This document shows, one piece after another, positions 55,171 to 57,712 of a DNA stretch of 64,000 nt. The DNA comes from an uncultured bacterium (lineage in GTDB: Bacteria; Patescibacteriota; Minisyncoccia; Phycocordibacterales; DATDWN01): NCBI GenBank assembly GCA_963727715.1, contig CAVSGX010000004.1:8455-72454 (forward strand), in the 5' to 3' direction. A program made the translations under genes and the position numbers. Numbering within the stretch: position 1 is the first letter of the stretch; the number at the start of each line of letters is the position of its first letter. The notes beneath the pieces were generated by a model. That model did no database searches. It worked only from the letters and a program-made list of their open reading frames with translations, and was not told where the DNA came from.

Positions 55171-55864
55171 GATAACTTTCGTTTCAGGTTCCCTGAAGTT
55201 TTTAACTTCACCATATCGCTTCCCGTTATTCACGACTTTGGACGTAGCGAGCGGATTTCCCGCACTACGCGAGTTCGATAGTTTCTAGAACTAACGATTT
55301 TGTCCTTCATTTTGTTTTTCAACAAAACTACTACGACGCAGCTGACTTCCAGCACTAATTTTTGGAGTCAAGATTTTCACTTGACAAACACATTTTTTTC
55401 TTATTATTTCATAGGAGGTACTTCGTATGCACATATTTGAGGTTTTTGTATGTGTTGTTTTGGCAATCATGTTTCTTCCTTTGCCAATTTTCTTTTTGCG
55501 TTTTATTGCTTGTATAATAACTGATGCTGATTAAATCTAATCAGTTATTAGTCGACTTGAGTGATTTTGTCAAATCACTCTTTTCTTTTTCCAAAAATTA
55601 GTGCTGGATCTCCCAGGGTCATTTATATTTCTGTTCCAAACATCCGAATCGAGATTTTCGATAAGATTTATCGTGTGCTTCCTTCTGACTCACCGCAGAA
55701 GTCGCACATCTCTTTTTTTTGATTCGGCTGCTCTTTGCTACTAGGATCCTTCAGTCCAGTCATTGCTGATTGTGGACCTACCCGTTCGCTATTTTCACAC
55801 TCCTGTGAAAAGTTGGATTTGAACCAACTAGATATATAAACTGCCTGGCGCATTTTATTCTGAG
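55171..55864 (-). other. ~0.7-kb insertion (putative intron) in 16S after 'CTTGTAC' (E. coli ~1395), no homing endonuclease ORF
   Basis: The exon breaks after CTTGTAC and resumes at '...ATCCGCCCGTCAAGTCAGGGGAG'. Confidence 0.6.
55351..55605 (+). mobile_element. IR-flanked mini-element copy A (terminal IR 'AGCACTAATTTTTGGA') carrying an SD-led 35-aa hydrophobic ORF (55427..55534) and a terminator, antisense to the 16S
   Basis: Terminal inverted repeats at 55351-55372 and 55585-55605. 'ATAGGAGGTACTTCGT-ATG'. ORF 'MHIFEVFVCVVLAIMFLPLPIFFLRFIACIITDAD'. Hairpin plus 'TTTTCTTTTT'. Confidence 0.55.
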
Positions 55865-56099
55865 TACAAGACTTGAGAACGTATTCACCGCGGTATGTCT
55901 GACCCGCGATTACTAGCAATTCCAACTTCATGGGGTCGAGTTTCAGCCCCCAATCTGAACTGGGGCGACTTTTCTAAGGATTGGCTCAGGGTTACCCCGT
56001 CGCAACCTGTTGTAGTCGCCATTGTATTATGTGTGTAGCCCAAGGTATCAAAGGGACATGCTGATCTGGCGTCATCCTCGCCTTCCTCCCAGCTCCAGT

Positions 56100-56215
56100 T
56101 GCGCAAGATGAACGAACTCGGTTAAGACCGAATACGGACATCGATGTTTGCACAGAGAGACATCTACTTATGATGTTCTTGTGCAACTGGAGCTGGGCAG
56201 TCTCGCCTGATACTT
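56100..56215 (-). other. rRNA expansion segment: ~100-nt extra hairpin between 16S positions ~1114 and ~1173
   Basis: Perfect 21-nt inverted repeat 'ccagctccagttgcgcaaga...tcttgtgcaactggagctggg' inserted between conserved blocks. Confidence 0.6.
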
Positions 56216-56641
56216 ATAACAGACAACGAGGGTTGCGTTCGTTACCCCACTTAAGGGAACAATTCAAATCACGAACTGACGACGACCATGCATCACCTGC
56301 CTAACTGTCCTTGTGGGACCGCAAACGTTTCTGCTTGCATTCAGTTAGGTTTCAAACCTTGGTAAGATTCTTCGTTTATCATCGAATTAAACCACATAAT
56401 CCACTGCTTGTGCAAGTCCCCGTCTATTCCTTTGAGTTTTAGCCTTGCGGCCGTACTACCCAGGCGCTTGACTTAACGCGTTAGCTACGCCACGCAGAGG
56501 GTCGATACTCCGCATAGCTAGTCAAGATCGTTTAGGGCGTGGACTACTGGGGTCTTAATGTTACTTCAAAATTTTGGGAAATTTTGAGGCACAACATTTC
56601 TGTTGTACTCTGCATGTTGCCATGCAGTTCGGACTATATCT

Positions 56642-57403
56642 TTATCTGTATGTATTCCACTTAGCTTTTTTCTTTTCATATTCTGCTATTATGACAGATT
56701 CTGAAAAATTACTAAGAGAAACCATTTCAGATATCCAGCGTTCTTGAAATTGAGAGTTTTTATATAGAAGAATTGCTTTGGATAACATGCTCGATACTGG
56801 TATGTATGGCAGTATGATACGCAAGAATTTTTTTAATTCTTCTTGTGACCTAATCCATAACCGCCAGTATTGTTCTTGCTTCCCATCTTGCTTACGCCCG
56901 ACGGGGGCAACAATGGCACGAACATCCCAAACAACTTTAAGATAGCGAGCTAGCATTTCGACTGATTGTTTTGAAAAACCATCAGTACAAAACACACCTT
57001 TTCTGGCGCCGTAACCAATAAGCGAACCGTCATCACACCACCAAACGGCGAGTGATAACGCTGTCATTTGATTAAGCCACCTACGCTCTATAAGCAATTT
57101 ATTTTGTTTGTGAGTTAAATGATGAAGTTCTGTAAGAGATGAAGTTCGCCTACTGGCAAATCTCCATTTTTTGTTCTTACTGTATCCATCAGGTTCCTGC
57201 ACAAACACACTGCTATCTCCTGCTATCTCTTTGAGAGCTTGCGCTTTCCATAAGAGATAATCTTTCTGCATTTCCGAATGACGAATTTGTAAATTCGCAT
57301 TGAAATAATTTTTTTGGATTTTTAGCGAGCCGTCTCCAAGGATTGAACCGAAGATAATAGCTTTCGCTTCATCCGACAAAGGCACATATTTCGTATCATG
57401 CAT
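56642..57403 (-). CDS. LAGLIDADG homing endonuclease (intron-encoded)
   Basis: 'GSILGDGSL' is a LAGLIDADG motif. It is on the same strand as the rRNA and inside the insertion. Confidence 0.8.
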   Translation of the reverse strand: MHDTKYVPLSDEAKAIIFGSILGDGSLKIQKNYFNANLQIRHSEMQKDYLLWKAQALKEIAGDSSVFVQEPDGYSKNKKWRFASRRTSSLTELHHLTHKQNKLLIERRWLNQMTALSLAVWWCDDGSLIGYGARKGVFCTDGFSKQSVEMLARYLKVVWDVRAIVAPVGRKQDGKQEQYWRLWIRSQEELKKFLRIILPYIPVSSMLSKAILLYKNSQFQERWISEMVSLSNFSESVIIAEYEKKKAKWNTYR

Positions 57404-57480
57404 ATAATTTTAAGTTAATTGCACGACGACAGAATAGCACCAACTATCTTACTCAATTTCATAGTCTCTACGGGGTTTCT

Positions 57481-57712
57481 AGCACTAATTTTTGGAGTCA
57501 AGCTTTGACTTGACAAGATTCATTTTATGATTTAACATCAATTCCAGGAGATTAACTCGATGGAATTTATTATGATATTGATCTGTTTAGGAGTTTTTTG
57601 TTTGATCACAGATATGATGATAACTGTTGCTATTGATATCTGTGAATGGATCGATCATTACCTGCACCGGCTTTTATAGCGGTGCAGTTTTCTTTTTCCA
57701 AAAATTAGTGCT
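57481..57712 (+). mobile_element. IR-flanked mini-element copy B carrying an SD-led 39-aa hydrophobic ORF (57560..57679) and a terminator, antisense to the 16S
   Basis: Same termini as copy A (57481-57502 and 57692-57712). 'CCAGGAGATTAACTCG-ATG'. ORF 'MEFIMILICLGVFCLITDMMITVAIDICEWIDHYLHRLL'. The stop codon sits in a terminator hairpin followed by 'TTTTCTTTTT'. Confidence 0.55.

Follow-up and report, generated by a model that had tools for sequence, protein, structure and literature searches.

Two short inserts within the interrupted 16S ribosomal RNA (rRNA) gene of an uncultured bacterium of the Patescibacteriota belong, we suggest, to a family of hairpin-insulated mini-gene cassettes, which lie antisense to the rRNA, exchange their cargo, and resemble the intervening sequences (IVS) of bacterial rRNA in their RNA anatomy. 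We give this reading a probability of about 60%. The stretch of DNA analysed, here called the window, covers 64,000 nucleotides (nt), positions 8,455 to 72,454 on the forward strand of contig CAVSGX010000004.1 (assembly GCA_963727715.1; Minisyncoccia, Phycocordibacterales), and the two inserts are referred to as cassettes, or copies, A and B. Both are ordinary members of the family and carry orphan hydrophobic peptides. The members share one anatomy, stand strictly antisense to the rRNA in parts of its precursor (pre-rRNA) that are discarded, are closed by a covarying helix, are optional at their host sites, and have their cargo replaced between relatives, with one cargo transferred between two sites. 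They are best kept apart from classical miniature inverted-repeat transposable elements (MITEs), and they are no demonstrated toxin system.

The original prediction, made from the letters of the window, had described two elements with the same termini, each with a small hydrophobic-peptide gene, at 55351-55605 (A, 255 base pairs (bp)) and 57481-57712 (B, 232 bp). These termini, coordinates and lengths are exact. In the window, the 16-mer AGCACTAATTTTTGGA marks the two ends of each copy and is found nowhere else, which makes four occurrences, and in each copy it forms a perfect 16-bp inverted repeat; allowing up to three mismatches, none of 100 shuffles reached the observed match count. The repeat reaches into the flanks, to 19 bp in A and 22 bp in B (Table 1), and at position -1 the two copies differ in a compensatory way, C:G versus T:A. 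The two small open reading frames (ORFs) are present as described and are preceded by what had been called strong Shine-Dalgarno (SD) motifs, AGGAGG 8 nt ahead of the ATG in A and AGGAG 9 nt ahead of it in B. In each copy, a hairpin followed by TTTTCTTTTT forms an intrinsic terminator. The 16S gene is on the minus strand and both ORFs are on the plus strand, and their hydrophobic character is evident from a maximum 17-residue hydropathy of 2.86 (A) and 2.55 (B).

What had been missed is a promoter: in both copies TTGACA lies inside a GTCAAG...CTTGAC hairpin and is followed by a -10 box. Since promoter, leader, ORF and terminator are all present, each copy is predicted to be a complete transcription unit opposite to the rRNA. 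The repeat pair had been proposed as a possible long hairpin, and on the rRNA-sense strand the arms of both copies do fold into a single long stem that closes the insert (fold z-scores -11.4 and -8.8 relative to shuffles). No U-run follows the hairpin on this strand.

Table 1. Positions in the window of the two cassettes, their parts, and the insertions of the 16S gene.
Feature	Position	Strand	Remark
Cassette A, whole, with 19-bp closing arms	55348..55608	+	Inside group-II-like 16S insertion
Cassette A, 5' arm (TCC + AGCACTAATTTTTGGA)	55348..55366		19 nt, 100% complementary to 55590-55608
Cassette A, GTCAAG-N7-CTTGAC hairpin with -35 TTGACA (55381-55386)	55367..55386	+	Sixth pair covaries in relatives
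Cassette A, -10 region TATTAT/TTATTT	55402..55409	+	15-17 nt past the -35 box
Cassette A, AGGAGG leader	55413..55418	+	8 nt before ATG, ~4-6 nt after the -10 box
Cassette A, ORF, 35 amino acids, MHIFEVFVCVVLAIMFLPLPIFFLRFIACIITDAD	55427..55534	+	One hydrophobic span; no Pfam match
Cassette A, intrinsic terminator	55559..55590	+	9-bp stem, then TTTTCTTTTT
Cassette A, 3' arm of closing helix	55590..55608		Complementary to 5' arm
Cassette B, whole, with 22-bp closing arms	57475..57718	+	P6 tip of the group I intron after U793
Cassette B, 5' arm (GTTTCT + AGCACTAATTTTTGGA)	57475..57496		22 nt, 100% complementary to 57697-57718
Cassette B, GTCAAG-N6-CTTGAC hairpin with -35 TTGACA (57510-57515)	57497..57515	+	
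Cassette B, -10 box TAACAT	57533..57538	+	17-nt spacer
Cassette B, AGGAG leader	57546..57550	+	7 nt after the -10 box, 9 nt before ATG
Cassette B, ORF, 39 amino acids, MEFIMILICLGVFCLITDMMITVAIDICEWIDHYLHRLL	57560..57679	+	Orphan
Cassette B, terminator hairpin (CTGCACCGG...CGGTGCAG) + TTTTCTTTTT	57662..57697	+	ORF stop codon in loop
Cassette B, 3' arm of closing helix	57697..57718		Complementary to 5' arm
Interrupted 16S rRNA gene	55041..58592	-	3' end lacks the anti-SD CCUCC
Group I intron, ~1.3 kb	~57852-56558	-	Inserted after Escherichia coli position U793 of 16S
LAGLIDADG_2 homing endonuclease ORF	56642-57403	-	Pfam E = 5.3e-32; same group I intron as copy B
Stem-closed 99-nt insertion in 16S	56088-56197	-	21-bp inverted repeat; between Rfam model positions ~1157 and ~1162
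Group-II-like insertion, ~0.7 kb	~55860-55167	-	E. coli 16S position ~1398-1400

The terminus is not confined to the window, and further copies, which the original prediction had proposed to look for, were found in many related genomes by species-representative and metagenome scans. A scan of one genome per species with the 22-nt terminus as query gave 10 loci, in metagenome-assembled genomes labelled Parcubacteria, Zambryskibacteria, Minisyncoccia and Saccharibacteria, and each locus is part of a 16S or 23S gene, the arms being perfect on either side (10/10). A scan of metagenomes, using a pattern that fixed only TTTTTGGAGTCAAG...TTGACA and left the outer arm free, gave 66 loci. Loci are cited below by their L numbers. 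Together with the window the two scans contain 70 complete elements of 134-521 bp, 51 of them unique, and five further variants are without the exact hairpin. In all, the pattern scans gave about 75 copies in contigs of the candidate phyla radiation (CPR) beyond the two of the window. The contigs come from aquifer and groundwater samples (Rifle RIFCSP, Hainich and the JGI Ga0209541/542 series). Searching the cassette loci for diverged arms at up to four mismatches gave no further copies, and none was present in the viral contigs scanned for the frame.

Every unique cassette with an rRNA in its locus is antisense to that rRNA (47/47, sense 0). The restriction to rRNA operons is seen in the loci around copies found by context-blind pattern matching, and not in a whole-genome census. 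The host sites include the P6 tip of small group I introns with no other ORF (L006, L008), the group-II-like insertion at 16S position 1400 (copy A, L005, L007, L009, L036, L070), 23S helix 10, which is replaced directly and without an intron (L001, L037), and the 5' leader of 16S, downstream of the rrn promoter and ahead of the mature 5' end (L023 and others). Copy B was placed in P6 by homology of its flanks to the introns of L006 and L008. Several copies can be present in one rRNA operon, as in the window, L012, L023, L051 and L069.

At two loci, L042 (5914-6461) and L056 (5330-5712), no intact rRNA is nearby, and the cassettes lie in stranded intron fragments among protein-coding sequence. 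The fragment in L042 also includes a 26-nt piece of 16S and is found between ORFs resembling alaS and mnmA, names judged from their translations, and the one in L056 has non-rRNA sequence on one side. Both are apparently relics of rRNA-intron DNA that moved to new loci. The longest variant, of 521 bp (L071, 6069-6589), contains two tandem small membrane ORFs of 68 and 49 amino acids, each with its own GGAGG, and identical copies exist in L022, L043, L044, L049, L067 and L072.

The arms of the family vary together. A search that put no constraint on the outer arm gave 12 or more sequence variants of it, for example AGCACTAA, GATGCTGA, AGCACACA, GGTGCTAA, CGTTCAAA and AACACTAA, each with the complementary change in the other arm. 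Over 38 distinct arm sets, 98.3% of the cells in the 19-bp helix are paired, and two-sided changes are seen in 9 of the 19 helix pairs (99 cells), a covariation that none of 500 shuffles reaches. When the partner is slid by 1-3 columns, pairing falls to 29-48%. In the flanks, 2-6 further bases extend the pairing into the host helix. No direct target-site duplication is present in the 38 distinct arm and flank sets; the flanking bases are reverse-complementary (C...G, T...A, A...T). The sixth pair of the -35 hairpin also covaries, as GTCAAG/CTTGAC, GTCAAA/TTTGAC and GTCAAT/ATTGAC. From these sequences, the inverted repeat appears to fit a helix better than a transposase site. The arms would be able to pair only in the rRNA-sense transcript or in DNA, because the predicted cassette transcript starts after the 5' arm and stops before the 3' arm. 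Pairing in the rRNA-sense RNA is weakly favoured by the non-Watson-Crick cells, where G.U is found 10 times on the rRNA-sense strand and 3 times on the cassette-sense strand, and by the arms of L056, which is stranded outside an rRNA gene and in which they have decayed and contain two mismatches.

Comparisons between orthologous insertions reveal a fixed frame around a changing interior. Only the first ~38 nt (arm, hairpin and -35 box) and the last ~24 nt (T-run and arm) can be aligned, and the middle, with the -10 box, leader, ORF and terminator stem, cannot. For L006/L028 and L001/L037, the flanks are 93-96% identical and the identity of the cargo is at the random level. The window copies and L002, L007 and L070 have flanks that are 78-87% identical, and here the cargo is likewise replaced. 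Across all copies the interiors are unalignable except in three pairs. The turnover of cargo is thus a replacement and not a gradual divergence. One non-coding cargo of ~188 nt, 83.5% identical, is found in two unrelated sites, 23S helix 10 in L037 and P6 of a 16S group I intron in L054, and homologous group I introns in the same locus set have a plain 29-47-nt P6 hairpin in place of the cassette. Because homologous introns exist without it and one cargo occupies two unrelated sites, the cassette can be regarded as an optional, mobile module. Recombination within the conserved frame would be the simplest route of exchange.

The expression signals are similar throughout the family. The spacer between the -35 and -10 boxes is 16-18 nt, about 35 of 37 cassettes have a -10 box of the form TAnnnT, frequently preceded by a TG, and a motif of the (A)GGAGG type stands 3-11 nt ahead of the ATG. 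In about 60% of the cassettes this motif begins 5-8 nt past the -10 box, i.e., approximately at the predicted start of transcription. ORFs that begin at the SD-associated ATG have a mean length of 54 codons, compared with 18.5 in shuffled interiors, and fill 77% of the available space compared with 28%. The longest ORFs are also biased to the cassette strand (59.9 vs 35.7 codons). In L020/L066, the only alignable pair of peptides, the ratio of nonsynonymous to synonymous substitution rates (dN/dS) is 0.13, at saturated dS.

Hydrophobic peptides of 25-75 amino acids with one or two spans are encoded by ~23-27 of ~42 family ORFs (~55-65%), about one third of the ORFs encode soluble, hydrophilic peptides, and several cassettes carry a structured non-coding RNA and no ORF. 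The window peptides had been called unrelated in sequence and similar in character, which fits a family where nearly all peptides are mutually unrelated. An exhaustive HMMER search with the peptide of copy B finds only itself, a singleton among 1.8 billion cluster representatives, and an exact look-up of copy A matched no contig or cluster. The non-coding cargo has no match in Rfam. Nor does any Rfam family span the window cassettes; a match to group-II-D1D4-1 at 55302-55388 is weak, sub-threshold and partly over the cassette hairpin. The homologous structured RNAs in L037 (13285-13535) and L054 (919-1167) are ~170-190 nt long, with apparent compensatory changes in two stems.

We suggest that such a cassette would function as follows. 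A strong sigma-70-type promoter, with its -35 box in a short hairpin, would be followed by a short (A)GGAGG leader, the cargo and an intrinsic terminator, with the 19-22-bp repeat on the outside. The cargo would be a small ORF of 25-100 amino acids, mostly for a membrane peptide, or sometimes a structured non-coding RNA. The repeat would form a single long stem that closes the insert and stands on the tip of a host helix (P6, the group-II-like insertion, 23S helix 10 or the 16S leader), and because this stem would insulate the insert, the host RNA could still fold, splice or be processed. By analogy with classical rRNA IVS, the long perfect stem is likely to be a substrate of RNase III, whose gene, rnc, is kept across the CPR (PMC12641178). 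The antisense orientation would be obligatory, because a terminator in the sense orientation would abort rRNA synthesis. Head-on transcription of the rRNA, and duplexes with the plentiful pre-rRNA or intron RNA, would work against expression of the cassette, and this expression should therefore rise when rRNA synthesis falls or growth stops. The frame would serve as a fixed expression socket, with ~38 nt on the 5' side and ~24 nt on the 3' side, in which cargo is exchanged between genomes, and relocation of whole cassettes to new hairpin tips is also seen. The A/T-rich inner arm lies at the place of an UP element (~-59 to -50), which could be the reason for its invariance compared with the covarying outer arm, although this invariance is partly circular as the search patterns fixed the inner arm.

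The leaders stand out from the rest of the window. Ordinary genes had been said to lack SD sequences, and this is borne out, as SD-like motifs are found ahead of only 2 of the 45 long ORFs, no more than background. A TATAAT-like box stands 5-12 nt ahead of the ATG in many ordinary genes, which look like genes with leaderless mRNAs; T occupies position -1 in 30 of the 45. The 3' end of the window 16S (...GUGGAAUAAUUC) contains no CCUCC anti-SD, and CCUCC is likewise missing from all 14 related 16S 3' ends visible in the loci, the comparison including L002, L005, L007, L023, L030, L036, L038, L046, L055, L063, L070, L071 and L075. A hidden anti-SD downstream of the 16S gene was considered and rejected, as none is present before the processing stem. 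The loss of the anti-SD has been documented in a subgroup of Parcubacteria (PMC9297842). The 16S 3' tail in the window (55041-55070) and in relatives reads GUGGAAUAAUUCAAUUUGAAA or GUGGAGUUUCAUUUUUAA.

Units that combine a promoter, GGAGG and ATG are found in the window only in cassette A, in cassette B and in a third mini-gene, all in the rRNA operon. The third mini-gene (54475-54770, minus strand) lies in the spacer between 16S and tRNA-Ile, sense to the rRNA, and consists of TTGACT-18-TATAGT with an upstream TG, a GGAGG, an ORF for a 74-amino-acid membrane protein with two spans (54497-54721) and a strong terminator (54504-54475). In L003, L055 and L070, units of promoter, GGAGG and ATG are found behind a terminator hairpin just downstream of the 16S 3' end.

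A wider and clearly more tentative proposal is that the rRNA operons of Parcubacteria without an anti-SD host an integron-like exchange of cargo. Orphan small-protein and small-RNA genes would be swapped horizontally in a hairpin-insulated socket (UP-like arm, hairpin -35 box, terminator, arm) and expressed inversely to rRNA synthesis, and GGAGG would serve a non-canonical route of translation initiation or have some other use. We regard this as possible rather than probable.

The original prediction had likened the inserts to MITE-borne small-protein cassettes that parasitise rRNA introns. Part of this holds, as these are optional, repeat-bounded small-gene cassettes in rRNA insertions. A MITE, that is, a non-autonomous DNA transposon whose repeats are bound by a transposase encoded elsewhere and whose small genes are passengers, would account for the perfect terminal repeats of 16-22 bp, the small size, the several copies per rRNA operon, the presence or absence at homologous intron positions and the same cargo at two unrelated sites, and an IS30-like transposase is encoded 1 kb away in the window. 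However, the target site is not duplicated, since the flanking bases are complementary and not identical, and the compensated variants of the outer 8-10 bp of the repeat fit a helix better than a protein-binding site. Further, the interiors are unrelated between copies, each copy among the pattern-matched loci belongs to an rRNA operon, intact or relic, with a single orientation in 47 of 47, the neighbouring IS30-like element has different ends, and no larger element with the cassette ends was present in the genome, metagenome and arm-agnostic scans. A MITE is therefore unlikely. It is harder still to see the inverted repeat as a conserved native intron helix, the case that had been named as speaking against the prediction. 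The arms do prolong the P6 stem in group I hosts, but the same frame is found in unrelated host RNAs (group-II-like insertions, the intron-less 23S helix 10 and the 16S leader), and homologous introns without a cassette have unrelated short P6 hairpins, which leaves this idea next to no weight.

Two other explanations concern what the cassettes encode. The likeness to type I toxin genes, also raised in the original prediction, would make the hydrophobic peptide a membrane toxin and the pre-rRNA or excised intron RNA its antitoxin in an addiction module, where intron loss or a shut-off of rRNA synthesis would free the toxin, and the intron would be stabilised or dormancy induced. Both window ORFs and more than half of the family ORFs are hydrophobic and short, with strong predicted promoters, and by construction a very abundant transcript runs antisense across their whole length. 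Most type I toxins are orphans, and so are the cargo peptides, which lack sequence conservation. However, about one in three ORFs encodes a hydrophilic peptide, several cargoes lack an ORF altogether, and no peptide is similar to any Pfam or PADLOC family. Also, as CPR-type hosts usually have a single rRNA operon (PMC11270868), the loss of the intron through an intron-less allele would be no obvious threat. We find this explanation rather improbable for the family, and a toxin-like role is a possibility for the hydrophobic cargo only. Alternatively, the ORFs might not be genes at all, and the inserts would be structured expansions of the host RNA or genes of a non-coding antisense RNA, with the frames and GGAGG as by-products. 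The lack of an anti-SD in the hosts and of SD motifs in normal genes, the orphan peptides, the clearly non-coding structured cargo of some cassettes and the rRNA-sense strand that folds far better than shuffles are all in line with this. It is quite unlikely, though, given that the SD-associated ORFs are three times longer than in shuffled interiors, fill most of the space, have a canonical spacing between motif and ATG and favour the cassette strand, and given the low dN/dS in L020/L066.

Several points weigh against the exchangeable antisense cassettes that we prefer. The GGAGG leader is paradoxical, because the host 16S has no anti-SD. The promoter, the start of transcription, the terminator and translation are predictions from the sequence of metagenome assemblies, and it is from the same material that we infer cleavage by RNase III, interference between the opposed transcripts and recombination inside the frame. 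No recombinase or insertion mechanism was identified. Every copy was retrieved by a pattern in which 14-22 nt of the frame are fixed, which makes the conservation of the inner arm and the hairpin partly circular. Support that does not depend on these patterns is limited to a second cassette in L012 and to an arm-agnostic search for any 12-bp inverted repeat with TTGAC and a T-rich tail, which returned only members with the same frame plus one unrelated repeat. The paired changes in the arms could also come from a DNA-level need for identical ends, and the G.U strand bias (10 vs 3) is weak, with some of the copies related. Selection on coding is seen in the single pair L020/L066. The cargo peptides are orphans, 46 unrelated sequences, and Pfam and PADLOC scans of 44 cargo peptides gave, at E <= 0.01, only chance-level matches. 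Finally, the 521-bp variant sits 1.3 kb upstream of the 16S gene, possibly outside the pre-rRNA.

Among known systems, the closest in anatomy are the rRNA IVS of Coxiella, Leptospira and Salmonella (23S helices 9, 25 and 45), which are likewise optional, spread horizontally and replace the tip of an rRNA helix. Their complementary termini form a long stem, ~28 bp in Coxiella and cut by RNase III (PMC4990558), compared with 19-22 bp and covariation in the cassettes. Some IVS contain an ORF, of the S23p family, in the sense orientation and without a promoter or ribosome-binding site of its own (PMC4990558), whereas the cassettes hold a complete antisense transcription unit and their cargo is exchangeable. 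Most cassettes are also in introns or the leader and not in helices of the mature rRNA, the window copies being in an intron and a group-II-like insertion. In anatomy, the cassettes of L001 and L037 amount to IVS of 23S helix 10, where an extended stem-loop replaces the loop.

The Correia elements of Neisseria, also called NEMIS, are short terminal-repeat elements that form a hairpin in host transcripts, can be processed by RNase III and have promoter activity. They have TA target duplications and homogeneous interiors, occur genome-wide in both orientations, and carry no gene or terminator. In contrast, the cassettes have no target duplication, heterogeneous interiors and a single orientation, and contain a gene and a terminator. 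With type I toxin-antitoxin systems they share, as read from sequence, the small hydrophobic-peptide gene, the strong promoter and the full antisense overlap, but here the antisense partner is pre-rRNA or an intron, many cargoes are non-hydrophobic or non-coding, and Pfam and PADLOC show no homology to a toxin family. The homing endonuclease ORFs of introns, as catalogued for CPR (Tsurumaki et al. 2024, PMC11270868), are likewise optional and sit in the same peripheral loops, and in the window intron a LAGLIDADG gene lies alongside cassette B. The cassettes differ in having no endonuclease domain in Pfam, in being antisense, and in having their own promoter, terminator and closing helix. Functionally they resemble integron cassettes, where diverse, mostly orphan single-gene cargo is swapped between relatives in a fixed context of recombination and expression. 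Integron cassettes are, however, promoterless, with a single attC hairpin and an adjacent integrase and attI, whereas the family described here has its own promoter and terminator and arms around the gene, and the flanks examined show no integrase.

The survey of CPR rRNA insertions (PMC11270868) does not mention inverted repeats, antisense genes or promoters, the arm string is in none of the papers searched, and full-text searches with targeted reading gave no description of such cassettes. We rate the IVS-like, hairpin-closed insert with an autonomous, exchangeable antisense gene as previously undescribed and as bordering on a new category.

The rRNA genes of CPR/Patescibacteria are crowded with introns and uncharacterised insertions, and the family would explain part of this material. 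The most complete survey sought only sense ORFs with known domains and left many insertions unexplained. If our reading is right, discarded parts of the most heavily transcribed operon would be a safe harbour for independently expressed and rapidly exchanged small genes, and the cassettes would be a natural case of antisense genes within rRNA precursors with a built-in structural insulator. They might couple small-protein expression to growth rate without any regulator, in bacteria whose regulatory repertoires are minimal, and they might supply orphan membrane peptides and small RNAs with a possible bearing on an episymbiotic lifestyle. They also offer a test case for the function of SD-like leaders in organisms without an anti-SD. 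In practice, the inserts are expected to confound rRNA annotation, and gene callers to miss or misjudge the cassette ORFs.

The window 16S gene has insertions at three places, and is interrupted where the original prediction had said. The intron after U793 has partial Rfam group I matches at 57680-57777 and 56610-56758, and its LAGLIDADG_2 ORF is sense to the rRNA and without an SD motif; an exact look-up of this endonuclease matched no contig or cluster. The short insertion at 56088-56197 has none of the cassette features and resembles a plain expansion or an IVS-type stem-loop. Position ~1400 of 16S is a reported site of group-II-intron-like insertions (Tsurumaki et al. 2024, PMC11270868).

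Next to tRNA-Ile, where the rRNA operon ends, lies a gene for an IS30-like transposase (HTH_38 + rve, 53340-54296). The element (53283-54296) has imperfect terminal repeats of its own, ~18 bp long and unlike the cassette arms, and it was rejected as a parent of the cassettes, as its ends (AAGTAGGACAG...) differ from the arms. In L001, two tRNA-model matches (1767-1835 and 1892-1978; 39 and 52 bits) lie on the same strand inside the span of the 23S gene. Outside the rRNA operon, at 61675-61844 of the window, a 32-bp perfect inverted repeat (ACAAATCCGACTGGCATAATAAATTTTTGGAG) surrounds ~106 nt in a gap between two minus-strand ORFs, contains no ORF and folds with a z-score of -9.6. It has the inner-arm motif AATTTTTGGAG in common with the cassettes, a motif with four occurrences in the window compared with 0.28 expected, and it could be related to the cassette frame as a degenerate or empty form.

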